Both the position numbers and the translations under genes were made by a program. The notes below the pieces were generated by a model that was given only the letters and a program-made list of their open reading frames with translations, was not told the DNA's origin and searched no databases. A stretch of DNA of 64,000 nucleotides from Patescibacteria group bacterium (GTDB lineage: Bacteria; Patescibacteriota; Minisyncoccia; Moranbacterales; UBA2206), in contig JAKLFF010000002.1 of assembly GCA_022711335.1 (NCBI GenBank), positions 17,441-81,440 on the forward strand, given 5' to 3'. Shown here in pieces: positions 3,754 to 36,067 of the stretch. Within the stretch, counting starts at the first letter, position 1, and every line of letters begins with the position of its first letter.

Positions 3754-6186
3754 GTGCGAAAACAGGCCATGTCCAAAAAGAAAAATGATAAAAAAATTCC
3801 GATCCTTGAGCCAAAGTTCAAGGATGTTTTGGCGTGTCGAGATGCCAAAATGAAGCCTTTTATTGAAATATTTATTTCAGAGCCGGAAAATGTCTACCAG
3901 GAAAATCTGGGTACAATTGCCGGAATTTTTGAAATTACTGATTTTTCCGAAGATTCTTCCTATATAGTCAATTATCTGGTTTCTATAATAAAAAAGGAAT
4001 ATTTTTCCCGGCCCAAAAGAGGAGCGGTAGAAAGTTTCGAAGCCGCGCTTCACAAGGCCAACTTGGCTCTTTCCAGGCTGGCTTCGCACGGAAGCGTAAG
4101 CTGGATAGGAAATATAAACGCCATCTGCGCTGTTTTTGAAAAAAATAATCTGCATGTTTCCCAAACCGGTTCTGCCTGCATGCTTCTTCTCCGGTCAGGA
4201 ATGCTCACTAATATAAGCGGGAGCGGAAAAGATGCGCAAGATACCAATCCGCTCAAAACTTTCCAGGATCTCATTTCTGGAAGAGTGGAAAAGGATGATA
4301 AGCTGATTGCGGCTACTTCTGAAATTTTCGAAATATTTTCCATGGAAGAAATAAAAAAAAGCGCTCTTAAATTTTCCAAGAAAAATTTTGCCCAGTTTCT
4401 AAACACCGCGCTTGTCAATGAGCTGGAAAGAGCCGCCGCGCTTGTCATTGATATTTCCGAAAAAGAAGAACTCGAAGTTCAGACTCCGCCGAAAATATCA
4501 TCTGTTAATGCTTTCAGCCAAGCCGCTTTTCAAAAATCCGCTCCCCCTGCGGCAGTCAAAAAAACACAGGAAGAAAAAAAAGAAATAATTGAAGAAATCA
4601 AGGAGGAATTCCAAAAAACAAAAGATGGGTTCGTCGACCAGAAAACCGGGCATATCTACATAAAAGACGGCGATATCTCCCTTGAGAGCCAAACGGAAAA
4701 AACGGAATATTTTTCGTTTCCCCGGGAAAAAATAGCCCGCGGAACATCCGGGTTTTTTGCGTCCTTGAAAAAAGCCGCAAAAACAGGACTGTCCAAAATG
4801 AAATTTGGAAAGCGCCCCGAAGCCCTTGAAGAAAAAATTGCCGCATCTCTTGCCGCTGAAGAAAAGCCATATCCCGATCAGTCAAAAATCATAATCAAAG
4901 AGGAAAAAATCCCGCCCAGCCGGAAATTTATGTCCGCGCTCGAAAAAGCGCTTGCGCTTCTAAGATCCGTTTTTCTTTCAATAAAAATTTTTCTGGCCTC
5001 AAAAATACTTTTTCCTTCCTTTTGTTTTCTCCGCAATCTTTGGGGGAAAATCATCCAAAAATATAAATCAAGAAAAGAAGCTTCGCGCGTTTCCGTTTCC
5101 GTTTCCGCTGAAATGCCCGAAGAAAATAAATTTGAAAAATTTCCGGATGAAAAAAATAAGCTTCAGGAATTTTGGAGCCAGCCGGCGCAAAAAAAATCCG
5201 CTTTCAGGGATAATTTAGCCGCTTTTCCGGGCCGCTTGATGCCCAGTTTTTCCAGGACAAAAAATATCCTTCAAAGCCTTTCCTTCCGCCAGAAAATTTA
5301 CGCGCTTGCTTTCGCAGCGGCGATTTTGATAATTCCATATTTCATAGCCAAATATGGAAAAGAAGAACCGAAAGAAATCACAGTTCCCCAAGAAGAGCAG
5401 CTCTCCGCCATTCCTCTTGAGCAGGATATCAATGTGAAAAGAATAGGAAATCTGGCCGGCATTTATCAAGGAGAAAATATCCTGTCTCCGGTTAGCATTA
5501 ACGGAAAAAATTTCGCAGCCGGAAAAGACAAAATAATTTCGCTTTCAGATAGCAAGGAATATCCCTTGCCTTCGGAATTTCAAAACGCAGATTTGATTTC
5601 ACAGATGGATGATCTGAATTTTATTTTTATCATTAAGGACAAAAAAATTGCCGCTTTCAGCGCCACAGCCGGAAAATTTCAGAATAACAATATCTCCATT
5701 CCCGATGGATCTGACATTATTTCAGCCCGATCGTATCTGACTTATCTTTATCTTCTCGACGTAAAAAACAGCCAGATTTACCGCTATCCCCGCGCCGAAG
5801 GCGGGTTCGGCGAAAAAACCGACTGGCTGAAAGATACGGTTGATTTCACAAGCGCCAAAGACATGGCTATAAACGACAATGTTTATGTCACTGACGGAAA
5901 AAGCGTTTATAAATTTTTCCGAGGCAAAAAGCAGGATTATGCTCCTGAAGAAACCGCCACGCCTGTTATCTTCGACAAGCTCTACACTAAGCCGGATTGG
6001 GAAAATCTTTATGTTTTAGACAAAGTTAATTCAAGAATTTTGAAGCTTGACAAAGACGGAAAAATAATCGCGCAGTATTATAACAGCGAGATTGGCAATG
6101 CCAACGATTTCGCAGTGGATGAAGAAAATAATGTGGTTTATGTTTCAAGTGAAAATAGTGTAAAAAGTTTCAACATTGAAATATAG
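3754..6186 (+). CDS. hypothetical membrane protein, 810 aa, one predicted transmembrane segment, family unknown
   Basis: Long ORF with a single hydrophobic segment (IYALAFAAAILIIPYFIAKY). The C-terminal third contains repeated YV.DGKS-like beta-strand-like motifs. Confidence 0.5.
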   Translation: MRKQAMSKKKNDKKIPILEPKFKDVLACRDAKMKPFIEIFISEPENVYQENLGTIAGIFEITDFSEDSSYIVNYLVSIIKKEYFSRPKRGAVESFEAALHKANLALSRLASHGSVSWIGNINAICAVFEKNNLHVSQTGSACMLLLRSGMLTNISGSGKDAQDTNPLKTFQDLISGRVEKDDKLIAATSEIFEIFSMEEIKKSALKFSKKNFAQFLNTALVNELERAAALVIDISEKEELEVQTPPKISSVNAFSQAAFQKSAPPAAVKKTQEEKKEIIEEIKEEFQKTKDGFVDQKTGHIYIKDGDISLESQTEKTEYFSFPREKIARGTSGFFASLKKAAKTGLSKMKFGKRPEALEEKIAASLAAEEKPYPDQSKIIIKEEKIPPSRKFMSALEKALALLRSVFLSIKIFLASKILFPSFCFLRNLWGKIIQKYKSRKEASRVSVSVSAEMPEENKFEKFPDEKNKLQEFWSQPAQKKSAFRDNLAAFPGRLMPSFSRTKNILQSLSFRQKIYALAFAAAILIIPYFIAKYGKEEPKEITVPQEEQLSAIPLEQDINVKRIGNLAGIYQGENILSPVSINGKNFAAGKDKIISLSDSKEYPLPSEFQNADLISQMDDLNFIFIIKDKKIAAFSATAGKFQNNNISIPDGSDIISARSYLTYLYLLDVKNSQIYRYPRAEGGFGEKTDWLKDTVDFTSAKDMAINDNVYVTDGKSVYKFFRGKKQDYAPEETATPVIFDKLYTKPDWENLYVLDKVNSRILKLDKDGKIIAQYYNSEIGNANDFAVDEENNVVYVSSENSVKSFNIEI

Positions 6187-6739: not shown

Positions 6740-9259
6740 TTACGCAATACTATTCACTTTCATCTTCGTTCTCTCCATAATCTCCCGACTCACAACGCTT
6801 TTGTCCCGGCCGTATTTCAAGCGGGAAAGCTCTTTGAAGGCATTGGCCGCTTCCTGATTGCCTTTTGTCGGAGGATAAAAAGAAATGTTAAAAGGTTTCG
6901 AAAGGAGATCATTTATAAGTATCTTTGCAAAACCTCTATAATTGTCAACGTTTATAAGATCCTGCTTGGAAAAAACCGGCGCGAACTGCTTTTCCATAAA
7001 TTCGGCGTCTTCCGCTCCCACACGCATCACTACCATCGATCCGACATTGCCAAACACCGCCTTGGAAATTTCTTCCTTGAGCTGGGCGATGAACTGATGG
7101 GCAATGATGAGGCATAATTTGTATTTCCTGGCTTCGGAAAGAATCTGCGCGATGGAATTGGTCGTCACATTCTGGAATTCATCCATATACAGATAAAAAT
7201 CCACTCTCTGATCCTCCGGCGTATCCACCCGGCTCATGGCGTTCATGAGAATCTTTCCAACCACCACCATCCCGAGAAGCCGCGCGTTGATTTCTCCTAT
7301 TTTTCCTTTAGAAAGATTAACCAGCAGAATTTTTTTATTGTCCATGATATCGCGGAAATTGATGGTGCTTTTCTGTTGGGCGATTATCGGCCGCATCATA
7401 TCATTGGAAATAAAAGTAGTAAGCTTGGAAGTGATATAGGGAACCATATTCGCCAAAGCCGCTTCTCCTCCGGCCTTTTCCGCTTCCTTGGTCCAAAAAT
7501 CAACCACAGTCGGATTTTTGCACCGGGAAATTTTCATCGCCCGAAAACTTTCATCTGACAGGACTTTGGGAATTTCCATGAGCGTATTTCCCGAATCCGG
7601 ATCTTCCATGATAAGCAACATGGCGTTTCGCATATATTGCTCAAACATCGGTCCGCCGGTTGATTTCAAATCGTATAATTGGTCGAAAATTCCGATAAGC
7701 TCGTTTATCACAAAAGTTTTTTGTTCCGGACGCGCCGGATCATATTCCATCATGTTAAGCCCGAAGGGTCTTTCAATATCTGCAGGATCAAAGATAATGA
7801 CATCTTCCGCCCGCTCTTTGGGAATTGCCGTCAGAATATCTTCGATAGCATCTCCGTGCGGATCGATAAAACAAAAACCGTTGCCGTTTTTCGCGTCCTG
7901 CTTGGCCATCTCCTGCAAAAAATTAGACTTTCCGGTTCCGGTCTGTCCAATGGTATAAAGGTGCCTCCGGCGATCTTTTTCCGCAATTTTTATGACTGTT
8001 TTGGCACCCCTATATTCATTGAAACCTAAAATTATGCCTTCTTGCGGGATATCGAGAGGCGGCGAAGCGGCGTTGGATTTCAGCCATTTGATTTTCGGCG
8101 TTTCGGTCGTGGAAATAGGCAGATGGAAGACGGAGGCAATTTCCTCGTTGTTGAGAATAATGGATTCATCGTCGCGGAAATTGCGGAAAATAAAGTCATA
8201 AGCGATGTCTTTCTTTTTCACTCTTTTTTTCACCTGGAAGCAATTAATGTCGCCGTTTTCAAACTGCGAAAAGGAATTCTCCAACTGGCCCAGAATTTCT
8301 TTGGCCCTTTCTCCGCTGCCAGCGGAAGCAATCAGGCGAATGTTGACATGGAAGCCGGTTTTGGAAGATTTATTTTCAATGCTTTTCACCAATTCCTGCT
8401 CCTCGGGAGTAAGCTGTACCGGCTTGGGTTCATTGTTTAGCTGGTTGTTTTTCGGAGATGACATAGCGGAATATAGCGCGTCCCCCATCCCTTTTCCGGC
8501 TTTCGAAATAATTGACCTGTCTGCATCTTTCAGTCTCTTTCCCTGCTGCATTTCGTGGGCGATTTTTTTGCCCTTCACTCTCCAGTGCGTCCCGGCCGGA
8601 CGCATAACCAGCTGGATAGCCGCGCCTTCTTTTTTAGTTTCCAGCTTGCTAAGCGCATTGGTTATAGCATTTAGCGGGTCAACTTCCAGATTTTCATAAG
8701 TCTTCACCGGAAGCGTATATTTATTTTTGATCTTAAGCACTGAAGCCTCAGTAAAACTCCCCGGCGAAAAAATAGTATAATCTTCCGATCTTTCCAGAAC
8801 CGCGTTAGGGAAAAAACTGTGCACCTGCTTCTCAATCGATTCCCGGAATTTTTTGGGAATGGCCATGAAAAAAACGATTTCTTCTGAATTTGAAGAGTTG
8901 GCAATTTCAAAACTGATCGCCGGCCTTCCCCAAAGTATTTGTTTGAGCATGCTTTTTGTATCTTTCAATGAAGAAAGCGCAGTGAACAGCTGTTCCATCG
9001 CTCCGATTTCTTCTTTCCAAATTTCATTCATTTTCTTTCCCTGCGTCTGCTGCTCCGGTTTTTCCGTCTTAGAAACCCGGATGATTTCCAAATCCATGTT
9101 CATCGACTGGTTTATCTCGCTGCGAAAACCAAAAAAACTTCCGGCGACCATAAAAGCGCCGGCAATCAAAGCGAAAGTTCCGGAAACCAAAGAGAGGATT
9201 ATTAGGATTGAGTTGAGATCAGGGTTTGGCATAAAAAATTTCCAATATCTAATATCCAA
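6740..9259 (-). CDS. membrane-anchored TraG/TraD/VirD4-like (type IV coupling protein family) ATPase
   Basis: N-terminal transmembrane helix; Walker A motif GQTGTGKS followed by DPHGD; Walker B YLYMDEF; C-terminal AHQFIAQL (the Q-x-x-QL motif of TrwB/TraD-family ATPases); 839 aa. Confidence 0.55.
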   Translation of the reverse strand: MDIRYWKFFMPNPDLNSILIILSLVSGTFALIAGAFMVAGSFFGFRSEINQSMNMDLEIIRVSKTEKPEQQTQGKKMNEIWKEEIGAMEQLFTALSSLKDTKSMLKQILWGRPAISFEIANSSNSEEIVFFMAIPKKFRESIEKQVHSFFPNAVLERSEDYTIFSPGSFTEASVLKIKNKYTLPVKTYENLEVDPLNAITNALSKLETKKEGAAIQLVMRPAGTHWRVKGKKIAHEMQQGKRLKDADRSIISKAGKGMGDALYSAMSSPKNNQLNNEPKPVQLTPEEQELVKSIENKSSKTGFHVNIRLIASAGSGERAKEILGQLENSFSQFENGDINCFQVKKRVKKKDIAYDFIFRNFRDDESIILNNEEIASVFHLPISTTETPKIKWLKSNAASPPLDIPQEGIILGFNEYRGAKTVIKIAEKDRRRHLYTIGQTGTGKSNFLQEMAKQDAKNGNGFCFIDPHGDAIEDILTAIPKERAEDVIIFDPADIERPFGLNMMEYDPARPEQKTFVINELIGIFDQLYDLKSTGGPMFEQYMRNAMLLIMEDPDSGNTLMEIPKVLSDESFRAMKISRCKNPTVVDFWTKEAEKAGGEAALANMVPYITSKLTTFISNDMMRPIIAQQKSTINFRDIMDNKKILLVNLSKGKIGEINARLLGMVVVGKILMNAMSRVDTPEDQRVDFYLYMDEFQNVTTNSIAQILSEARKYKLCLIIAHQFIAQLKEEISKAVFGNVGSMVVMRVGAEDAEFMEKQFAPVFSKQDLINVDNYRGFAKILINDLLSKPFNISFYPPTKGNQEAANAFKELSRLKYGRDKSVVSREIMERTKMKVNSIA

Positions 9260-9411
9260 TTTCCAATAAAAACCCCAATTCCCAAATTATTCTTGTATCT
9301 TTGGACATTTTTAATTGGACATTTTATTGGAAATTGGTAATTGGTAATTTGAGGACTTTCTTTTTTAAATAAAACTACACAAAAAAAATTGAATGCAACT
9401 TTAATAAAGCG

Positions 9412-9891
9412 CTAAATTTCCTTAATTAGTCCTTTTTTCGCCAGAAATTCATGCAATTCGTCTGACAGTAATTTGTCGTGGAACTCGTCCAAAACATAAT
9501 TATTTTCCATATGCCTCGCCACTTTTACCGCATGCGCCAGTCCTTTGGTTTCCGCCAGAGTTACAAGATTATTCACTTTGGCTTCGGCGTCTTTTTGGCG
9601 CATCGCCATTTCAGCATCAGCAGAAATATCCTCGTCTTTGGCGGTTTTGCCATCCGCCACCTTGGAAAGTATTTTCGCGTATGCATCTTCTTTCTCCGCT
9701 ATTCCTTCTTTTCTTTCCAGCGTCGATTCTTGCTCCATCTTGGGCAATTGCTCCAGGGCTGGTTTTTCTGTTTTTTGCTCAGAAATTTTCAATTCCTCCG
9801 GCTGTTTAGCCTCGCTTCCTTCTGGAAATTTTTCCTTAAGATTCACGTCTTTTTCCTCAATAGGCTCCGGGTTTATTTGTTGATCTGGCAT
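9412..9891 (-). CDS. hypothetical acidic protein (begins MPDQQ)
   Basis: 159-aa Glu/Lys-rich ORF that directly follows the 155-bp palindromic element. Confidence 0.45.
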   Translation of the reverse strand: MPDQQINPEPIEEKDVNLKEKFPEGSEAKQPEELKISEQKTEKPALEQLPKMEQESTLERKEGIAEKEDAYAKILSKVADGKTAKDEDISADAEMAMRQKDAEAKVNNLVTLAETKGLAHAVKVARHMENNYVLDEFHDKLLSDELHEFLAKKGLIKEI

Positions 9892-9913
9892 GATTATTTA
9901 ATGTTAGAAACTC

Positions 9914-10068
9914 CTGAAGAATTAAAATTTTCGAGAAATTTTTGTTTGAGAACTTGAATTTTATCCAAAATTTTTCTTAAGCAGCCGCTGATTGGGGAAA
10001 AATTTTGGTTATAAAATTCAAGGTTCGAGTTAATTTTGAGAAAATTTTAATTCTTCAGTTAATCTAAT
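9914..10068. repeat. 155-bp long imperfect palindrome, copy 1
   Basis: Outer arms ctgaagaattaaaattttcgagaaa / tttgagaaaattttaattcttcag. Inner arms ttgaattttatccaaaatttt / aaaattttggttataaaattcaa. GC-rich centre cttaagcagccgctgattgggg. Confidence 0.85.
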
Positions 10069-10077
10069 TAAATTTAA

Positions 10078-10392
10078 TTAACGCTTCATTTCCTCCTTAA
10101 AATCGTCGATCACGTTTTTTACCATTTCTTCATAATTGGGCAGCCTCTCTTTAAGAAACGCTTCAACCTTGTCCGGTTCGGCCTCGCCTTCAATAATTCT
10201 GGCATACTCATTCTGGTCTGATTCCGGAAGCTTTTCCATAACTTCGATGAAAATCCTTTTGAGAAGCACCTCGGTCATTTTTACCAGCAGTTCTTCCTTT
10301 TTTTCCTGGGAAACTCCCGCCAGCCCCAGTTCATCCAAAAAATCTGATTTAATTTCTTGACCGCCGGCGGGCGATTGATTTTGATCTGGCAT
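10078..10392 (-). CDS. hypothetical acidic protein (begins MPDQN)
   Basis: 104-aa ORF with the same N-terminal MPDQ start as 9412..9891 and the same upstream element. Confidence 0.45.
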   Translation of the reverse strand: MPDQNQSPAGGQEIKSDFLDELGLAGVSQEKKEELLVKMTEVLLKRIFIEVMEKLPESDQNEYARIIEGEAEPDKVEAFLKERLPNYEEMVKNVIDDFKEEMKR

Positions 10393-10425
10393 ATTTTTAA
10401 AAATAAAAAATTATGATATGAGTTA

Positions 10426-10570
10426 CTGAAGGGTTAAAATTTTCGAAAAATTCCTGTTTGAGGATTTGAATTTTATCCAAAATTTTTCATTGGCAGCCGC
10501 CGATTGAGGAAAAATTTTGGTTATAAAATTCAAAGTCCGAGTTAATTTTGAGAAAATTTTAATTCTTTCG
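10426..10570. repeat. 155-bp long imperfect palindrome, copy 2
   Basis: Near-identical to 9914..10068 with a few substitutions in the outer arms and the central loop (cattggcagccgccgattgagg). Confidence 0.85.
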
Positions 10571-10654
10571 TATTTTTTCAATATTACTTTAACAATTTAG
10601 ATGCAAATGCGCAAAGCCTATGTTTTATTCGTATTTAGTGCGACTTGGCTATTT

Positions 10655-13627
10655 TTAGTTCTCCGACATCATCCTTCTTTTTACGATCAGTTTCGTCACT
10701 CGCCCGGCCCATTCTTTCATGTTCTCTCCAGCTATCGGCTGAATTTCCTTTTTCCCGTAAATCTTCACGCAGTCTTTGTAAAATTTTCCAAAATTCCCTT
10801 TCGGATGCTTGCCAACGTATTCCGCTGCCGCCATCTTTTCCAGGGAAAATTCCTCATGCGCGCCGGCTTCAAACAAGGCTAGCTTCGCGATCTTGTTGAA
10901 AACCTTGCTGGTAGAACCAGAGAATAATTCATTGAGTTCCTTGAATCTTTCCCAGTCATGGATTTTGAATTCAAGCGCCATCTTTCTTTTCATAAGATCC
11001 TCGAGCGTTTCCTTGAATCCTTTGGCAATATCCCGTTCTTTTCCGTCTAAAAGCTCGGGGTTTCCATAAAATTTCATTCGGTTTTGATTTTGCACTATTT
11101 GATCGTCAAGATAAGCAAGCTCCGCTTTTGATTTTCCATAACTAAACCCTTCGAAGCCTCTTTCGCGAGCTCTGATATCCAGCATTTCTCTTTCCATCGC
11201 TTTCATTCCCGATAAATCCTGGTAGGTTTTTTCAAAATCAAAAGCTTCAGTATTTATTTTTTCAGAAACTGCTTCTATTTTCGGCGCGCGCGGCGCCCGG
11301 CCGGATTTATGCTGATCCGTTCCCTTAGCGCCCGGGTACTTGTCCCATTCAGAAAGCGGACTGTCCTTAAAATCAACTATGCGCTTTCCGTCCGGGCTTA
11401 GCTCCAATTTCGCACCCGGATGGACAAGATTATATTCCTTTCCGGTTGGATCAGGATGACTCTTGATATATTCCAGATACATTCTGTGCGCCATCTTGCC
11501 TGCCTCTTTTTTGTTTGTCCCGCCGCTTTCCAGTTGTTTAATTATCGCCCCTTCAAAACTGCCGCCCTTTTTAATTTCTAAATTAATATTTTTCGGAACC
11601 TCTGGTTTTGATCCGGGAATTGTTTTTCCGGAAATTTTAGCTTCGTTTTTTTCAATTGTCGCATTATTGTCAGGAGCAAGTGTTCCGGCATTTTCAATCG
11701 TTTCATTATTCCCAAAAACTGCTGATTCAGCTTTTCCGCCCGATTCGACAGTCGCATTTCCCCCGCCTACAGCTCCATTTGGAACACCCGGGCCGGGCGC
11801 AGTTTCCGATATGCTACTTTTTAAAATTCCAGCCATTTTGTGAACCGCTTCAGAGGTTGCTTTTCCAGCTTCAGTCTTATGCAAAAATTTAAAGATTTCC
11901 CCCATAGCGCCGCTTCCGATTATTCCAGCTATGGCTCCGCCCGCAGCCAGCCTGATTTTGTCCCAGTTTTTGTAGCTTTGCAGTTTGTCATCGGCGGAAA
12001 AAATAAGTTCATTAAGTTTATTTTTTATTTCTTCTTCGCTCAAATTCTCCGCTTCCCTGGCAAATTTTTCTGAACCTTTTTCCGCTCTTTTCTCTCTTCC
12101 TTTTTTCGCCATGCCTTCCGCAAAAATACTCGCTCCAGTCCCAGTAATCGCTCCCATAACAGCCCTCCTCGAAATAGCCGCCATAGTTAAAGCCGTAGCC
12201 GCTGAACCCGCGATTAACCCGAAGCTAGCCGCCGCTCCGCCCAGTCCGAAAGCTGCTCCGACTGCCAGTTTATATTTGAGCGGCTGTTTCCGATACCATT
12301 CGTTCATTTTGACCAGATTTTCCCGCAGCGGTCCGGCAAATCTCCCTGAATTTTCCACCCGAACCTTGTCGTGCTCGTCCGCTAGGTTCACTCTCGACTC
12401 AACCTCGAAAAATTTTCCCATTTCCGCCAGATCTTCCGCTTTCATTCCTTTGGCTTTCGCGTCTTCCAGCATGGCATTTCGAAGATCAACGAGCTTGTTT
12501 TCATAAAGCGCCCGCATATAAACCACGTCTTGATCATCAACAATCATATCTCCTGTTTTCTCCCCGGCTTTCATGGAAACTTCCTCCCTTCCTTTTCTTC
12601 CAAAAATCTTGTCTCCGAAAAATCTGCCGACTTTCTGCCACATGCCCCGTTTTTTATAATCCATTTCCAGATAATCTTTTCTGGCCTGTTCCAGCTCTTT
12701 TTGCAATTTTTTTATTCCTTCTTTCCTTTCTCCGCGCCAATTTTGATCAGTTATTTCAAGCGGTTTGTGTTCAATAAATTCCGCATCAATAATTTCCGGT
12801 TCCTCTCTTTTCTTACCTGTGAAGGGCTTTTTTTTCTCCGAAGTTTTGTTTTTCGATTTTCCAGTTTCAGTTTCTTCTTCCGGTTCTTCAAATTTAGTAT
12901 TGTTTATTTCTTTCTGGGCTTTTTTGGCTCTATCTCTCTCCACATCTTCCATCGTTTTTGTTGCACTCATCAGTTTTATTCTGCCAGCCTTTTCCTTCCA
13001 TGCTTCGTCTATAATTTTCTGTTCTTCCTCCATACGATCAGTCCGTTTTTCATACCCTTCGTATTTTTTCGCTAAATCGGGAAATTTTTCTTTGAATTCC
13101 TCCCAGGCTTCTTCTCTCAATTTGTTTATGTCTTCTTCTTGAAGTTCATTGTATTTTTTGCCGTTTTTTCTGAGCCATTCATTAACAGCAATCTGATAAA
13201 TACCTTGAAAACTGACATCATGAATTACGTCTTTTTCTTGATTCGTTTCCGCCTGCTTACTTTTCTTTTTAGATTCGATGGCGCTTTTGTCATACAGATC
13301 GCGTATGTCTTCCGGCAATTGGCTTTTAACTTCATTATAAACCTCCTCATTCATCCCCTTTTTCATGCTCTCAAACTTATCGCCGACTCTTTCCTTGAAA
13401 TTTTTCTTTCGGTTATCGGGTGATTTCTCGGCTGATTCCGCTATTTCTCCAGTTTGAGCTTGTTGGATTTCCGCCGCCAGCTTTTCGTCCCTGGCCAAAA
13501 AACCTTCCGGACTGTTTTTAGCCTTTTTACTTTTATTGTTTCCTTCAAATTTTTTTCGGCGCTTATCTTTTTTCAAAATTTCCTCCTCTGCCATTCCTGC
13601 CGGCTCGCCGAGTTTTTTTCTCGCCAT
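10655..13627 (-). CDS. hypothetical large Lys/Glu-rich protein with a central Gly/Ala-rich hydrophobic segment
   Basis: 990-aa ORF. Central glycine-zipper-like stretch LAVGAAFGLGGAAASFGLIAGSAATALTMAAI. No recognisable catalytic motifs. Confidence 0.45.
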   Translation of the reverse strand: MARKKLGEPAGMAEEEILKKDKRRKKFEGNNKSKKAKNSPEGFLARDEKLAAEIQQAQTGEIAESAEKSPDNRKKNFKERVGDKFESMKKGMNEEVYNEVKSQLPEDIRDLYDKSAIESKKKSKQAETNQEKDVIHDVSFQGIYQIAVNEWLRKNGKKYNELQEEDINKLREEAWEEFKEKFPDLAKKYEGYEKRTDRMEEEQKIIDEAWKEKAGRIKLMSATKTMEDVERDRAKKAQKEINNTKFEEPEEETETGKSKNKTSEKKKPFTGKKREEPEIIDAEFIEHKPLEITDQNWRGERKEGIKKLQKELEQARKDYLEMDYKKRGMWQKVGRFFGDKIFGRKGREEVSMKAGEKTGDMIVDDQDVVYMRALYENKLVDLRNAMLEDAKAKGMKAEDLAEMGKFFEVESRVNLADEHDKVRVENSGRFAGPLRENLVKMNEWYRKQPLKYKLAVGAAFGLGGAAASFGLIAGSAATALTMAAISRRAVMGAITGTGASIFAEGMAKKGREKRAEKGSEKFAREAENLSEEEIKNKLNELIFSADDKLQSYKNWDKIRLAAGGAIAGIIGSGAMGEIFKFLHKTEAGKATSEAVHKMAGILKSSISETAPGPGVPNGAVGGGNATVESGGKAESAVFGNNETIENAGTLAPDNNATIEKNEAKISGKTIPGSKPEVPKNINLEIKKGGSFEGAIIKQLESGGTNKKEAGKMAHRMYLEYIKSHPDPTGKEYNLVHPGAKLELSPDGKRIVDFKDSPLSEWDKYPGAKGTDQHKSGRAPRAPKIEAVSEKINTEAFDFEKTYQDLSGMKAMEREMLDIRARERGFEGFSYGKSKAELAYLDDQIVQNQNRMKFYGNPELLDGKERDIAKGFKETLEDLMKRKMALEFKIHDWERFKELNELFSGSTSKVFNKIAKLALFEAGAHEEFSLEKMAAAEYVGKHPKGNFGKFYKDCVKIYGKKEIQPIAGENMKEWAGRVTKLIVKRRMMSEN

Positions 13628-29706: not shown

Positions 29707-29829
29707 AATTCTCGGCACTGACTTACTCTTCCTCTGAAAAAAACAGAGATACCATCAGCGCTGACAGGCTTAACGACTGAGTTCGGGATGGGATCAGGTG
29801 TGACCCTGTCGCTAGAAGCACCGAGAATT
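29707..29829 (-). rRNA. rrf: 5S ribosomal RNA
   Basis: Minus-strand sequence GGTGCTTCTAGCGACAGGGTCACACCTGATCCCATCCCGAACTCAGTCGTTAAGCC...GCTGATGGTA... matches the bacterial 5S core. Helix I closes between 29811..29829 and 29707..29724. Confidence 0.7.
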
Positions 29830-30394
29830 ATAGAAACAAAATGGCAGAAATGAAGGGATGCTTGTCCACCTCTGGCGGAGGATCGGGCCCGCCAAAGACG
29901 GGTAAATGTTTCCACTTCGCTAGAACCGCCAAAATAATGCTTTTTACCCTATTGAATAAAATTTTGCCTCCGGTAAAATTTAATTTTTCCTTCGGAAAAA
30001 TTATTCAACAGGTTAAATTAAAATGCGTTTATCACAGGCGAAAAGAACATAAACGATACAACCGTAAACATAATTACGAAAAATATCGTAAAAATAAATC
30101 GAAAACTTTTTTTATATTTGTCGTATCTTTTCATATCTTTTTACATTATACCATTAATTGCAACCAACTACAACTTTCTTAGAAACTGCTAACTGCTAAC
30201 CTCCGACGCTCCGGCCAAAGCCGGAGGTCGGAGCTCCGAACCACTAATGAGTTCAAAAACTCATTAGTGCGTCGGAGCATATTTTTAAGAGAGATAATGT
30301 TTAGTTTATTAGTATCTCTTGGCTCAATGAATCTCTCCACTTACACCTGAGACCTATCAACCTGGTAATCTTCCAGGAAACCAGCCAATGCAAA

Positions 30395-30592
30395 GCATTG
30401 GAAGCACGAAATCCAAAATTAGAAATCCGAAACAAATTCAAATTTTAAAATCACAATTTTCAAAACATTAATAGGAATTAGTTTTGTCAGCCAGAGGCTG
30501 ATCCGCCTTTGGCGGAAATTTTGAAAATTATAATTTTGATATTGTTTAGAATTTCGAAATTCGAATTTCGAATTTCCAGTGCTTCGCACTGG
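30395..30592. repeat. IVS family B, copy 2 (helix-98 region near the 23S 3' end)
   Basis: Begins gcattggaagcacgaaatccaaaattagaaatccgaaacaaattcaaat and ends ...gaatttcgaatttccagtgcttcgcactg. Related to 33900..34070. Confidence 0.7.
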
Positions 30593-30794
30593 CGTTGCCT
30601 TATCTTGGGCGGGGCTTCCCGCTTATATGCTTTCAGCGGTTATCCCTTCCGAACGTAGCTACCCAGCAGTGCTCCTGGCGGAACAGCTGGTACACCAGAG
30701 GTTCGTTCTTCAAGGTCCTCTCGTACTATCGAAGACTTCCCTCAAGCAACAACGCCTACAGCAGATAGGAGACCAACCTGTCTCACGCATGTTT

Positions 30795-31180
30795 TTCACT
30801 TATTACTAAGTGCATTGGACTATAACTTCATCCAAAAAAATATGGATGGCTAACATTTAGTCTCTACGGGCAATTACAAACTTCAAAGAAGGGAGGAGAG
30901 AGTCTCCATTGGGAGGGCAGAAAAACCCTAAGCCATTCGGCTTTCAAAATGGACGATGCCAGGAGCCATTCGGCTAATTCCTGGAGTTCATCTTTCGCTC
31001 TCCTCTTTAAAGTTCATAATTTTCCCTCGGTATTGTCCTTTCTCAGGATTCTACCGAAATTAGTTAGCTTCACTATTAATATTACTATTAATAGCCGCCG
31101 TGTTTTTGATGTCTTATTCCTCGGATTCAAACTGTTAAATTTCCTTTATCTAAAAGCTAAAAAGCTAATAACTAAAAGCT
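30795..31180 (-). mobile_element. ORF-less group I intron-like insertion at the 23S position equivalent to E. coli ~2593
   Basis: Interrupts the conserved GGGTTCA|GAACGTCGTGAGACAG. Contains the P7-like motif GTAGAGACTAAATG (reverse complement at 30845..30858). Confidence 0.5.
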
Positions 31181-31231
31181 GTTTAACGGTTTGAACCCAG
31201 CTCGCGTACCGCTTTAATTGGCGAACAGCCA

Positions 31232-31291
<60 letters not shown>

Positions 31292-31317
31292 CTCCGTCGA
31301 TGTGGACTCTTGGGAGG

Positions 31318-31350
<33 letters not shown>

Positions 31351-31511
31351 TGATGATCTTCCACGCTCCTATGAGCGATGGTCGGTTCACTAACTTCCAC
31401 TTTCGTGACTGATCGACTAATGAGTCTTGCAGTAAAGCAGGCTTATGCGTTTGCACTACCGGCCCGATTTCCATCCGGACCTAGCCTACCTTTGTAAACG
31501 CCTCCGTTGCC

Positions 31512-31544
<33 letters not shown>

Positions 31545-31945
31545 ACCAGGCACTGTCCCCGAACTGGATAAGAAGAAAGAAGTATGAAGTAAGAATCAAG
31601 AAGAATATGCAAAAATTTTTCTTTAGAAAAATTTTTGGCTTATCTCTTTCTTCTTTATTCTTTCTTCTTAACAGTTCAGGGTTAGCGTTTAAACTCACAA
31701 AGAGTGGTATTACACTGTTGGCTCCATCTCGACCGAAATCGAGACTTCAAAGCCTCCCACCTATTCTAGGCATCATAAACTCAAACGCAATGCCAAGCTA
31801 TAGTAAAGCTCCACGGGGTCTTTTCGTCTTGCTGCAGGTCGACGGCATCTTTACCGTCATTGCAATTTCACCGAGTTCTTCGTTAAGACAGTTACCAAGT
31901 CGTTACGCCTTTAATGCGGGTCAGAATTTACCTGACAAGGAATTT

Positions 31946-32555
31946 CGCTCTTTTTTGTTAACTCTTGATCGCTCAAGAGAACGGACTATATTTTTTCGCC
32001 TTATTAGCGAATTCGGCATTTAGTCTCTGAGGATTCTAAAAATCTAGAAGATTTTCTATGATTCATTTTCTCAATCATTTTTGCAATTTTTTTCATTCCA
32101 CTTAATTTCGAATGTTCATTCTCATTCATCATTGCCACTATTTTTGCAAAAATTTTAAAATCTTCTTTTTTGGCCGTTTTCAATCGGTTTTTATCAAAGA
32201 ACGGGATTATTATTTCAGTCAAATCTTTTTTAGATCTTACGCAATAACGATATAAATTCTCGTTGTGATTATCATATCGTTTATTCACGAAAACTTTTCC
32301 ACATTTGAAAAATTTTAATAAAATTTCAAGTGATTTTTTACTTTTTTCGCCTTGCGTTACTACAAATTCCGGAAAAACTTGCCATCCAAATTTTGTAGTT
32401 TTGTTTCTAAAAAGACTAACCGAGAAACATCCTTCTCCATCAACATAACCAATTATCCAACCAATCATTTTTAGTCTTTCCTGCTGATTGTCTGGTTTTT
32501 CAAATTTACCTTGAAAAACACTGGAAACATTTTTACTGGGCATAACTTTTTATTA
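31946..32555 (-). mobile_element. group I intron in 23S (near E. coli position 1931) encoding a LAGLIDADG endonuclease
   Basis: Interrupts ...TAAGGTA|GCGAAATTCCTTGTC. Carries the Tetrahymena-like P7 motif CAGAGACTAAATG (reverse complement at 32021..32037). Confidence 0.6.
32004..32543 (-). CDS. LAGLIDADG homing endonuclease (intron-encoded)
   Basis: GYVDGEGCF matches the LAGLIDADG motif. The 179-aa ORF lies wholly inside the 23S locus. Confidence 0.75.
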   Translation of the reverse strand: MPSKNVSSVFQGKFEKPDNQQERLKMIGWIIGYVDGEGCFSVSLFRNKTTKFGWQVFPEFVVTQGEKSKKSLEILLKFFKCGKVFVNKRYDNHNENLYRYCVRSKKDLTEIIIPFFDKNRLKTAKKEDFKIFAKIVAMMNENEHSKLSGMKKIAKMIEKMNHRKSSRFLESSETKCRIR

Positions 32556-33005
32556 AATAATCTATGGAATAATTATACCATAGTAGCTCCAGATTCACCA
32601 GATTTTCCAGCATATAGCTGAATGTTTTAAGACATACTATTTTAATAGTATAGGCAGTTACTTTTCCTTTTTCTTAATTTGCCGTTTACCAATCTTCACA
32701 CCATGCAATCGTTCCAGTCTTGAGACTACCTTGCAAGATAATCTCAACCTTAGAACGATTCATAATGTATGTGTTAGCTCTATGTCTCCATAGAGATCGG
32801 ACTATATCATCTTCGATCTTTATATCGAAGTTTGGCGTGTAGTCTCTGAGGATTCTGCCAAAATAGTTGGCAGCCTTTCCTGCTGATTGTCTAATCCGAT
32901 AATTTTTTAAAACCACTCAGCTTATCCTTGCGGATTACTGTTTGGGTATTATCGGCTCTAAAGAGTTTCCAGCATTTGGCCAAATTTTTTAACTACAATC
33001 GTTAC
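32556..33005 (-). mobile_element. second, degenerate group I intron (near E. coli position 1917) with a remnant ORF at 32686..32916
   Basis: Follows the exon sequence ...GCGATAACTATAA. Shares the 17-mer tagtctctgaggattct (P7 region) with the neighbouring intron. Only a 76-aa ORF without LAGLIDADG motifs remains. Confidence 0.4.
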
Positions 33006-33305
33006 TTTATAGTTATCGCTGACGTTCACTGGCGCTTCGGGGATTGGCTTGCACCGCTCCCGTTAACGTTCCAGCACTGGTCAGGCGTCACCCCCCATAC
33101 TTCCCCTTGCGGGTTTGCGGAGAGCTGTGTTTTTGATAAACAGTCGCTTGGTATCTTTCGCTGCGGCCCCCGCCGAGGCGGGGGCAGTCCATATCCCTAA
33201 GTTACGGACGCTGTTTTGCCGAGTTCCTTAACGAAGGTTCACTCGTTCACCTTAGGCTACTCGCCCAGTCTACCTGTGTCGGTTTTAGTACGGATTCTGT
33301 CAGAT

Positions 33306-33497
33306 CCTGTGTCTCGCGCTGCTCGCCACAGGGAATTTACAATTTTCAATTTACAATTTACAATCAATTTTCAATTTAATAATTTTTAATTTTCAAACCA
33401 ACTTGTAATTGATAATTGAAAATTGAATCATTGAAAATTTATTGATCATTGATAATTGATCATTGAAAATTCCGTGTCGAACAAAGTGAGACACGGG
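33306..33497. repeat. IVS family A, copy 1 (192 bp, inserted near 23S nt ~1600)
   Basis: Identical over 192 bp to 34685..34876. Closed by the helix CCGTGTCTC / GAGACACGG around an AT-rich body. Confidence 0.9.
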
Positions 33498-33899
33498 CAT
33501 AGAGGGTTTTCCCGGCACCTTGCTCATCTCCCTTTTCTGTCCGAAGACAAATTCGAGAAATATCTTGAATGATATGCGGCGGATTTTCCTGCCACACGTT
33601 CTCAATATTCCTACGAAAATCCAATAATTCGCAGAGACTACTAAGATGCGTCACCTCATTTATAAACTGACAAAAGCTATGGAATATTAACCATATGTCC
33701 ATCGACTACGCCTTTCGGCCTCGCCTTAGGCCCGGCTAACCCTGGGATGATCACCATTGCCCAGGAAACCTTAGACTTTCGGTGTCGGGGGATCTCACCC
33801 CAATTGCGGTTACTCGTTCCAGCATTCTTACTTCCATACACTCCAGCCTGGCTCGCGCCTTGACCTTCAGTGCGTATGGAACACTTCCCTACCAGACAA

Positions 33900-34070
33900 T
33901 GCTACGCATTGGAAGCACGAAATCCAAAATTAGAAATCCGAAACAAATTCAAATACTTAAATTCAAATGTCCAAAACAAGTTGTTTTAAATTTTGAAATT
34001 ATAATTTTTTAATATTGTTTCGAATTTCGATATTCGAATTTCGAATTTCCAGTGCGAAGCACTGAATCCG
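33900..34070. repeat. IVS family B, copy 1 (helix 45 of 23S)
   Basis: Replaces the helix-45 loop between GTGCCGAAGATGCGG and GTCTGGTAGGG. Ends in the hairpin cagtgcGAAGcactg. Confidence 0.7.
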
Positions 34071-34684
34071 CATCTTCGGCACTATGTTTCAGCCCCGTTA
34101 CATTTTAGGCGCAAAGCCTCTAGACTAGTGAGCTGTTACGCACTCTTTAAAGGATGGCTGCTTCTAAGCCAACCTCCTAGGTGTATAAGAAGCCTTACTT
34201 CCTTTTCCACTTAACATAGATTTTGGGACCTTAGATGGCGGTCTGGGCTTTTTCCCTTTTGAGATCCGACCTTAGCGCCGGATTTCTGACTGTCCGAATA
34301 AGTAGCTTTGGAATTCGGAGTTTGGTTGAAAACCCTACGGCGAACCGCGAATTCTCATTCAGTAGCTCTACCTCCAAAGCACATTTAACGAACGCTAGCC
34401 CTCAAGCTATTTCGGGAAGAACCAGCTATCGCCAAGCTCGATTACAATTTCTGCTCTATTCACAAGTCATCCCCCAGTGTTGTACGGCTGGTGGGTTCGG
34501 GCCTCCTTTGGGTTTTACCCCAAATTCACCCTGCTCATAAATAGCTCGCCTGGCTTCGGGTCTAGTCCATGCCATATAATCGCCCGTTAAGGCTCGCTTT
34601 CACTTTGGCTCCACAATAAAAATTGCTTAGCCTACGACATAGAACTAACTCGCTGGATCGTTCTACAAAAAGCACGCCATCACC

Positions 34685-34876
34685 CCTGTGTCTCGCGCTG
34701 CTCGCCACAGGGAATTTACAATTTTCAATTTACAATTTACAATCAATTTTCAATTTAATAATTTTTAATTTTCAAACCAACTTGTAATTGATAATTGAAA
34801 ATTGAATCATTGAAAATTTATTGATCATTGATAATTGATCATTGAAAATTCCGTGTCGAACAAAGTGAGACACGGG
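34685..34876. repeat. IVS family A, copy 2 (helix 25 of 23S)
   Basis: Identical to 33306..33497. The flanks align to E. coli CTGAAACCGTGTACGTACAAGCAGTGGGAGC, which is helix 25. Confidence 0.9.
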
Positions 34877-35267
34877 AGCTCTGACTCTTTGTTAGCATAC
34901 GGTTTCAGATACTATTTCATCCCCCTCATCGGGGTGCTTTTCACCTTTCCCTCACGGTACTGGTTCGCTATCGATCACTAAAAATATTTAGCCTTGGAAG
35001 ATAGTGCTCCCATCTTCAAACGGGATTTCTCCGGTCCCGCCCTACTTGTTTTGAGACTTAGTTCCACGGATCCATTTTCGCTTACGGGGCTTTCACCCTC
35101 TATAGCCGTTCTTTCCAGAAACGTTTGGCTAATAGAACCGCTAAAGACTCAAGGCTTTTCCGCGTTCGCTCGCCACTACTTGCGGAATCTCAGTTGATTT
35201 CTTTTCCTCCGGCTAATAAGATGTTTCAATTCGCCGGGTGTGCTTCATCACACTATGAATTCATGTG

Positions 35268-35452
35268 AAGATAATCCATTCTTCACTTTATCCAGAATCT
35301 TGCTAATTAAAATAGCCCGCAAATTTTTAATTTTTTAATTTTTAAATAATGCTCAAATTTCTAATGTTTAAAAATTAAAGCATTAAAAAAATTATTTACA
35401 AAATTAAAAATTATAAAATTTAAAAATTCTATTCTGAACGAAGTGAAGAATG
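35268..35452. repeat. IVS in helix 9 of 23S
   Basis: About 150-bp AT-rich insert bounded by the inverted repeat ATCCATTCTTCACTT / AAGTGAAGAATGGAT, between TTTCCGAATGGG and GAACTGAAACATCT equivalents. Confidence 0.75.
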
Positions 35453-36067
35453 GATTGGGTTTTCCCATTCGGAAATCTCCGGGTCAAAGGTTGCTCGTCA
35501 CCTCGCCGAAGCTTATCGCAGACTGCTACGCCCTTCATCGCTTTTTAGTGTCAAGGCATCCACCATATGCATTAGTATTACCGCTCTTACATCACGAAGC
35601 ATATAACATACAACATACAACAATTACGCATAGCACTAAATATTGTTTCGTTTTTTATGTTACATGTTTTATGCTATATGCTTCATGATTTTTAGTTAGC
35701 AGTTAGCAATCACTAATGTCGCCAACTGCGTTTTTCGCGCGGCCGCCGGTAAAGCGGTTTTACGCGATTGCAATTTCTATCCCGCCGCTCGCAAGCGGCA
35801 GAATGACCTACTTTCTAATGCTTCGTTGCAAAAAGCATTAGAAGACTAATCGCCGATATCAATTTTAGTTTCCGCAAACTCTAATTAACTTGAGTATCGC
35901 GATTAAGACCGTATTCAATTGTCAAGGTTCGCCCTAGCCGCGCGGCCGCCGTTGAGGCGGTTTTACGCGGTAACGCGGAAATACATTGATACTACTTTCT
36001 ATCAAGTAATATTAAACTATTTCTTCGCTACCCATTCGTTATTCATATAAATTCACAGTTCGCAACA

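Follow-up and report, generated by a model that had tools for sequence, protein, structure and literature searches.

Two long hairpin repeats in a Moranbacterales operon: probable old insertions of a previously undescribed family of miniature inverted-repeat transposable elements

The stretch of DNA studied here (hereafter the window) comprises 64,000 nucleotides of contig JAKLFF010000002.1, from a Patescibacteria group bacterium of the order Moranbacterales. On its minus strand it carries two copies of a long nested palindrome, each located shortly ahead of a gene for a small protein beginning with MPDQ (P2, 104 aa, and P1, 159 aa). The question raised by this locus is whether the palindromes serve the expression of these two genes or represent mobile DNA that was inserted beside them. 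The original prediction, made from the sequence alone, proposed a structured 5' leader (attenuator, processing stem or regulator binding site) or an inter-cistronic terminator, and alternatively a transposable element of the miniature inverted-repeat type (MITE). The analysis presented below leads us to conclude, with good confidence, that the two palindromes were inserted long ago and belong to a hitherto undescribed MITE family of Moranbacteria and related bacteria of the candidate phyla radiation (CPR). The element is best classified as an additional family of an already familiar type; it does not represent a novel mode of regulation.

A hairpin element at many unrelated loci

A repeat search of the window detected a direct repeat of 155 nt without gaps (9901-10055 versus 10413-10567) with 87% identity. 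By BLAST, copy A (between P2 and P1) and copy B (between the gene for a 990-aa protein and P2) were 90.1% identical over 142 nt; a MAFFT alignment of the two was also made. The duplicated, approximately 90% identical nested palindrome with its arms was thereby confirmed, as were the open reading frames (ORFs), their strand and the order 990-aa gene, element, P2, element, P1. The predicted length of 155 bp is correct for the repeat, while the bounds given by a covariance model of the family members point to an element of about 159 nt. The nesting of the stems also stands, with dimensions that differ from the predicted 25-bp outer stem, 22-bp inner stem and 22-nt centre, the arms of copy A measuring 27 and 18 nt and its loop 20 nt. 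The hairpin of copy A starts 9 nt past the P2 stop codon and ends 22 nt ahead of the P1 ATG; that of copy B starts 84 nt past the stop of the 990-aa gene and ends 33 nt ahead of the P2 ATG, in agreement with the expected 20-35 bp. The termini of copy A have departed little from the family consensus (TAGATTAACTGAAGAA...TTCTTCAGGAGTTTC), and those of copy B are degraded, with four mismatches in the outer stem. In copy A the tip loop is closed by a tip stem (CCAAAATTTTTC/GAAAAATTTTGG) that is invariant or nearly so among 19 aligned copies, although the pattern used to search for members overlaps this stem.

Folding of the minus-strand RNA, a check proposed with the prediction, returned long hairpins for copy A (-48.9 kcal/mol, z -8.3) and copy B (-39.9 kcal/mol, z -4.5). 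On the plus strand the values were -61.4 kcal/mol (z -8.6) and -53.4 kcal/mol (z -5.2), respectively. None of the shuffled sequences matched the native energies for either copy or strand; the plus-strand folds are more stable than those of the minus strand, but so are the plus-strand shuffles. Exactly two copies are present in the window, against a chance expectation of 0. A single ORF of 52 aa (10423-10581) is found inside copy B and is missing from copy A and the other members, which indicates that the element is non-coding.

Further members were sought with the tip-stem pattern (an exact match over 23 nt) in one genome per species. Fourteen matches were obtained, ten of which are true members located in six metagenome-assembled genomes (MAGs) of Moranbacteria/Parcubacteria; the other four, in Elusimicrobia, Aenigmatarchaeota, Alphaproteobacteria and Moorena, were rejected as chance matches to the pattern. 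A scan of metagenome contigs added more members, and about 20 distinct loci could be recognized by nhmmer together with R1, a covariance model based on 19 copies. Their orientation is well defined, forward-strand scores being two to three times the reverse-strand scores. Several copies occur per MAG, with two or three on single contigs of 9-13 kb. All of these copies are intergenic (~20 of 20 loci), usually a few nucleotides from the upstream stop codon and 2-80 nt from the downstream start. The neighbouring genes are unrelated to one another and include tig, MnmA, ScpA/ScpB and IS3 orfA as well as genes for signal peptidase I, an ECF sigma factor, sigma/HARE-HTH, methyltransferase/radical SAM, AntA, Mur ligase, LexA-like, Gp49 and response regulator proteins. 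Occurrence at many unrelated loci, which the original prediction had named as the mark of a plain MITE, was thus found at about 20 sites.

No member was detected by the tip-stem pattern in viral contigs, and blastn against phage and plasmid collections gave no match to the element. The suggested Rfam scan likewise assigned no family (Rfam 15, gathering thresholds). At E-values up to 10 only small-RNA families matched, far below threshold and mostly plant microRNA hairpins, which is consistent with any long A+T-rich hairpin.

Ends, target sites and insertion history

The ends of the element could be delimited in a young subfamily of nine near-identical copies at different sites, which cease to resemble one another sharply beyond a left end of TAGGTCACTGAAGAAC and a right end of GTTCTTCAGTGGTTTC. 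The terminal inverted repeats of the family (CACTGAAGAAC...GTTCTTCAGTG) run imperfectly for about 35 nt inward. A perfect target-site duplication of 5 bp flanks five of the nine young copies, a sixth matches in 4 of 5 bases, and the more divergent copy L060b also shows a perfect 5-bp duplication. When left and right flanks of different copies were paired by permutation, five duplications were reached in 0 of 20,000 cases. The target sites are A+T-rich spacers.

For the operon itself, contigs encoding P2 or P2 homologues were compared. Strains with an identical P2 carry copies A and B like the window, and one of the contigs (L003) contains in addition a third copy, C, between P1 and a gene for a TraG/TrwB-like ATPase. 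Contigs L009-L011 (P2 89% identical) have copy C only, together with a 21-nt remnant of the left arm of B joined to another repeat; here, as in L003, copy C lies just upstream of the ATPase gene. In L012 and L013 (84%) only the B remnant was found, accompanied by other repeats resembling repetitive extragenic palindromes (REP-like). Copy B is present in L071/L072 (78%), where the gap between P2 and P1 is just 17 nt and contains no copy A, and the spacers of L070, L014 and the P0008 contig (62-70%) are 19-70 nt long without any element. Altogether, copy A is missing from the P2-P1 spacer in L071, L009, L012, L070 and L014. P2 homologues hence occur both with and without flanking elements, and the suggested association of the element with P1/P2 homologues is not conserved among relatives.

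An empty site is preserved in L070, with the sequence GATAAAAATAAAAGAG; in L071 the same flanks enclose the element, and AATA/AAATA is duplicated. The target of copy B was formerly a spacer of about 42 nt, the orthologous site being filled in L071/L072 and empty in L070. Copy A is 88-89% identical to copy B of both the window and L071, while the two orthologous B copies share 81% identity and are no better conserved than the neighbouring genes. The empty site and the spacer occupancy among relatives show that copy B entered what had been a short spacer of the operon and that copy A is a later addition confined to the lineage of the window. The 5-bp duplications and the empty site in L070 likewise show insertion by what would be a transposase making 5-bp staggered cuts in A+T-rich DNA.

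The element is therefore small and non-coding, has terminal inverted repeats, and belongs to a family with 5-bp duplications, many unrelated loci and empty-site polymorphism. Of the explanations offered by the original prediction, it is the MITE alternative that dispersal, target-site duplications and empty site support. Bacterial MITEs are in general A+T-rich and intergenic, yield stem-loop transcripts and have duplications that fade with age (PMC10969869), and the match of the element to these properties supports its assignment as a MITE.

Several observations weigh against this assignment. The outermost 5 nt of the family (TAGGT / GTTTC) are conserved without being inverted repeats of each other, and only five of the nine young copies have a perfect duplication. 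At the window copies no target-site duplication can be recognized, with 3/5 and 2/5 matching bases for A and B, respectively. Since the direct repeats of MITEs fade over time (PMC10969869), this and the degraded ends of copy B are as expected for old copies. In 565 kb of sequence examined, no autonomous element with the same termini and no linked transposase were found; outside the known copies, these termini occurred only in the L009-type remnant and in one chance match. An IS3-family orfA/orfB pair (HTH_Tnp_1 plus an integrase-like ORF; L033:2837-4208) that starts 22 nt from an antisense copy (4049-4208, L033b) was rejected as autonomous partner because matching inverted repeats are lacking; this adjacency looks coincidental or due to a displaced insertion-sequence end. 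The 64 kb of the window contain just two copies, which share an operon, and a local duplication of B would account for copy A as well as transposition does. Transcription of the copies, taken up below, is something we infer. Finally, the covariation along the whole hairpin and the conservation of one copy near tig, described in the next section, exceed what is predicted for a purely selfish, decaying MITE.

Conservation of the hairpin and alternative explanations

Over the full length of the hairpin, pairing is kept in 93.6% of the aligned cells, and changes on both sides are seen in 23 of 48 pairs. This level was reached by 0 of 500 shuffles, and slid partners were paired in 35-65%. Subfamilies that are 71-89% identical overall have kept the tip stem and the internal-loop motifs (AACTCG, CTCAAACAG) unchanged or almost unchanged. 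Mismatches of the G-U type and of the A-C type occur in 24 and 16 cells, respectively, and in 10 each when the outer helix is excluded; this lack of strand asymmetry speaks for a constraint unlike that on an RNA read from one strand. The pairing fits a constraint at the DNA level, such as a cruciform, a single-strand hairpin during transposition or mismatch correction within the hairpin, and equally a descent from differently compensated master copies.

One copy, in the spacer between a pyrophosphatase gene and tig, is shared by five species-level genomes. It is 88-99% identical among them when the 23 nt fixed by the search pattern are left out, compared with 59-78% for the third codon positions of tig and 45-84% for the adjoining spacer, and its conservation is as strong as that of first and second codon positions; the collection of these loci by the exact 23-nt pattern favours conserved copies. 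Farther relatives (tig 69-78% identical) have spacers of 6-41 nt without the element. Judged by its conservation above third codon positions and by the element-free distant relatives, the tig-linked copy is one ancestral insertion under apparent purifying selection.

The surroundings of this copy are variable. Tandem ATTCGTA/AATTCGT heptamers, in numbers that differ by species, lie between the element and the tig start (L020:3776-3856, L023:2023-2103, L024:5176-5276), and in two of the genomes, L024 and L026, an inserted G+C-rich hairpin interrupts them. Such a tract might belong to a promoter or be UP-like, or it might be a simple-sequence repeat that varies. Upstream of the element, a soluble pyrophosphatase is encoded in three genomes (L023, L024, L026); L020 has a gene for a membrane H+-pyrophosphatase at this place, and L025 a different gene. 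Synteny breaks exactly at the left end of the element, and the tig-linked MITE may have served as a rearrangement breakpoint.

Recruitment of some copies by the host is suggested both by the selection acting on the copy near tig and by the covariation throughout the hairpin. Extended to the window, this gives the alternative that survives best and is compatible with a MITE origin: the element spreads as a MITE, and its hairpin has a host-level function where it has landed, whether by directing the processing or stability of polycistronic mRNA, by binding a protein as DNA or RNA, or by contributing to a promoter region, with copies A and B acting in cis on P1 and P2. The invariant motifs agree with such a role, as does the orientation relative to the gene starting downstream, which is sense at about 14-15 loci and antisense at 4 (two-sided binomial p ~0.02-0.03), and so does a divergent intergenic region in L016/L018 that is nearly filled by the element. 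The grounds for recruitment, however, do not apply to the copies in the window. These are dispensable in relatives, A being missing there and B partly deleted in L009-L013, and they evolve about as fast as their surroundings, as the 81% identity of the orthologous B copies illustrates. The missing strand asymmetry argues against an RNA read from one strand, promoter- and terminator-like sites are at chance level, the covariation may stem from different master copies or from mismatch correction in a DNA hairpin, and the selection bias of the tig loci has been mentioned. We regard this explanation as possible but unlikely. The broader proposal that the hairpin is a mobile structured module repeatedly kept by CPR bacteria for a host function, e.g. 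as an RNase III/RNase E determinant or a protein-binding site 5' of genes, is rather unlikely too; if it were true, the window copies would tune the relative expression of small proteins in a TraG-like secretion cluster.

An intrinsic terminator between the cistrons, or a terminator plus promoter cassette splitting the operon, was considered because a stable hairpin begins so closely behind the P2 stop codon and a weak promoter-like match (TTAACC, 16 nt, CATAAT) extends across the 3' end of copy B. The stems, however, are A+T-rich without a U tract behind them, and a terminator scan of the coding strand found none at A or B, nor at three other members. Promoter-like matches, sought at A, B and the same three members, do not exceed those in shuffled sequences, and copy A has no TTAACC-type match; the loop of the tig-type and methyltransferase-type copies contains a CTGACA-N16/17-AAAAAT match that neither A nor B shares. 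Both the terminator and the idea of a MITE carrying its own small ORF-associated promoter thus lose their footing, and the former is very improbable.

A dedicated cis-regulatory leader (attenuator, riboswitch-like sensor or operator) for the two MPDQ proteins scarcely deserves more than a marginal probability. The position of both copies 22-33 nt ahead of start codons, on the coding strand, and folds far better than those of shuffled sequences had made it attractive. It is contradicted by homologues of DUF5663 (the P2 family) and P1 at 62-78% identity that have spacers of 17-70 nt without the element, by other, unrelated repeats in the same spacers of close relatives, by the same element ahead of many unrelated genes and by the lack of strand-specific wobble; moreover, Rfam gave no match, and P1 and P2 are unrelated proteins.

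The attC recombination sites of integrons have RYYYAAC...GTTRRRY cores. The layout of gene, palindrome, small gene, palindrome, small gene, a structure kept more than its sequence and the strain-variable spacer content recall palindromes that mark mobile gene cassettes, but a P2-P1 order fixed in all relatives with or without the element, ends (GAAGAAC...GTTCTTC) that misfit these cores, 5-bp duplications that point to transposition instead of site-specific recombination, and the lack of an integrase among the examined neighbours of any copy leave this reading practically negligible. A hammerhead-like reading was dropped on inspection by eye.

Under the MITE explanation, mobilization of the element would have been by a transposase acting in trans, and copy B, with its decayed termini, is probably immobile. 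The spacers of 17-70 nt in element-free relatives are typical of an operon and speak for one transcription unit with read-through. With no terminator-like site on the coding strand, both copies are likeliest transcribed within the operon mRNA. There, each would probably fold into an imperfect hairpin with some 48 pairs, whose end would lie 22-33 nt ahead of the P2 or P1 start codon. By analogy with the Correia and ERIC elements discussed below, the likeliest effect would be RNase cleavage, segmental processing or altered mRNA stability, as a by-product of insertion with no dedicated control.

Mobile DNA is usually said to be scarce in the genomes of CPR bacteria, which are tiny and densely packed with genes. 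Our literature search found no publication describing MITEs in Patescibacteria. The largest census of prokaryotic MITEs used RefSeq bacteria, aimed to exclude putatively contaminated MAGs and single-amplified genomes, and mentions no Patescibacteria, Parcubacteria or candidate phyla in its text (PMC11602168), and for these reasons the CPR appear not to be covered by it. A MITE family is now documented in Moranbacteria, for which the ends, a duplication of 5 bp, an empty site and polymorphism among strains have been established. It can serve as a strain-typing marker, is a likely cause of assembly breaks, and calls for caution in annotating such hairpins as riboswitches or leaders.

The host cluster and comparison with known systems

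The coordinates of the elements and of the surrounding genes are collected in Table 1. The order of PMT_2 glycosyltransferases, 990-aa gene, DUF5663 (P2), P1 and ATPase is conserved among relatives, and the spacers vary.

Table 1. Hairpin elements and neighbouring genes in the window
Feature	Position	Strand	Remarks
MITE copy A	9907..10066	minus	~159 nt, P2 stop to P1 start; covariance-model match 9907-10065, 142 bits, E 7e-28
Copy A, 5' terminal inverted repeat (outer stem arm)	10032..10058	minus	27-nt arms, 89% complementary
Copy A, 3' terminal inverted repeat (outer stem arm)	9914..9940	minus	partner of 10032..10058
Copy A, inner arms	9959-9976/9997-10014	minus	18 nt, 89% complementary
Copy A, tip loop	9977..9996	minus	20 nt, G+C-richer, family motif CAAYC..GGC
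MITE copy B	10419..10577	minus	~159 nt, between 990-aa gene and P2; covariance-model match 140.5 bits, E 2e-27
Copy B, 5' terminal inverted repeat	10544..10572	minus	29-nt arms, 79% complementary
Copy B, 3' terminal inverted repeat	10424..10452	minus	partner of 10544..10572
Copy B, inner arms	10471-10488/10509-10526	minus	repeat search
Copy B, tip loop	10489..10508	minus	repeat search and family alignment
TraG/TrwB-like ATPase (DUF8128)	6740..9259	minus	downstream of P1; start at 9232 in other annotations
P1, 159 aa	9412..9891	minus	no Pfam family; host gene, kept downstream of P2 in relatives
P2, 104 aa, DUF5663	10078..10392	minus	Pfam PF18908, E 2e-10; host gene outside the element
990-aa protein	10655..13627	minus	first gene of the conserved cluster

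No homology between P1 and P2 could be detected. Both begin with M-(P/A)-D-Q-(N/Q), and 12 nt (ATGCCAGATCAA) are identical in the window. Similar M-x-D-Q-N/Q-like starts were found in element-free relatives (MADQN for P1; MPDKN, MLNQN and MDNQN for P2), which places the shared MPDQ start outside the duplication; it may be an N-terminal signal shared within a secretion-related cluster.

The spacers of this cluster hold other repeats as well. A different palindrome, with short repeats of the CCAATT/ATTACCAAT type and 40-nt arms that are 78% complementary, lies between P1 and the ATPase gene (9241-9352). It was rejected as a family member because the covariance model did not match it and its fold z was only -2.2; in L003 and L009 copy C of the MITE occurs in its place. 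In close relatives, the spacers that hold the MITE in the window are occupied by other repeat families (L009:4865-5535, L012:2303-3020, L013:1570-2290), including GTCATTCCC...GGGAATGAC hairpins and GTCGTTGCGAGG...CTCGCAATGAC hairpins, and a CATAAAA heptamer is repeated four to six times directly past the P2 stop. Small repeats of several kinds seem to gather preferentially in these operon spacers. A gene for a 132-aa '23S rRNA intervening-sequence protein' (PF05635) between P1 and the ATPase gene, present only in the 84% relatives (L012:3482-3880, L013:2755-3153), is a further sign that these spacers accept foreign DNA. Comparison of L003:6983-7141 with L001:6972-7170 revealed that L003 is identical to the window in P2, A and B and continues from the end of P1 with L009-type sequence, including copy C, a pattern suggesting that strains have recombined close to the P1 stop or that the assembly is a chimera joined there.

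Elsewhere in the window (29710-35585, minus strand), the 23S rRNA gene spans 5,298 nt compared with 2,925 nt for the model. Group I introns interrupt it at no fewer than two places (30796-31118 and 32778-33018), and another 1.7 kb or so of inserted sequence is present; a 23S gene with such introns fits the origin of the window from a Candidatus Moranbacteria (CPR) genome. The 5S gene adjoins it at 29710-29825 and no 16S gene was found in the 64 kb, so the rRNA genes may be unlinked. Model R1 gave a weak, non-significant match to a long A+T-rich hairpin within the 23S region (30392-30585).

Among known systems, the Tn3-derived inverted-repeat miniature elements (TIMEs) and other MITEs with 5-bp duplications resemble the present family in their A+T-rich targets and imperfect terminal repeats of about 35-40 bp. 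Tn3-family repeats carry a GGGG...TAAG signature, which is lacking at the ends of this family; its outermost 5 nt are also not inverted, and a transposase of the Tn3 type was not seen. The Coxiella burnetii element QMITE2 and the Rickettsia palindromic elements are likewise small palindromic mobile repeats persisting in small, gene-dense genomes of host-dependent bacteria. Both are A+T-rich and give stable stem-loop transcripts (PMC10969869). QMITE2 has direct repeats of 7-9 bp and is mostly located 3' of ORFs, and the Rickettsia elements lie in-frame inside genes, whereas the family described here is strictly intergenic and mostly found just 5' of gene starts.

Correia elements (CREE/NEMIS) of Neisseria duplicate TA and carry a site for integration host factor as well as known promoter hexamers. 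They share with the window element a size of 100-160 bp, pairing terminal repeats, a location near gene starts and a central region that could bind a host factor; the window element differs in its 5-bp duplication and in promoter-like sites at chance level, and the sequences are unrelated. Within co-transcribed mRNA, Correia elements form a hairpin that is cleaved by RNase III at the paired repeats (PMC10969869).

The repetitive intergenic consensus of enterobacteria (ERIC, also intergenic repeat units, IRU) provides another parallel. The window element differs from it in belonging to CPR bacteria instead of Gammaproteobacteria, in its 5-bp duplication, in being far more A+T-rich and in an effect on RNA that is proposed by analogy only; blastn (word size 11, E up to 0.001) against 5,426 complete genomes of the ERIC carrier E. 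coli gave no match. ERIC is classed as a MITE, and its transcripts alter the stability of flanking mRNA through exposure of RNase E sites (PMC10969869). In common with the window element, ERIC sequences are imperfect palindromes of about 130-160 bp, situated in either orientation and mostly in transcribed spacers in or beside operons, with strain-variable presence, an expected long RNA hairpin and some copies conserved beyond neutral expectation.

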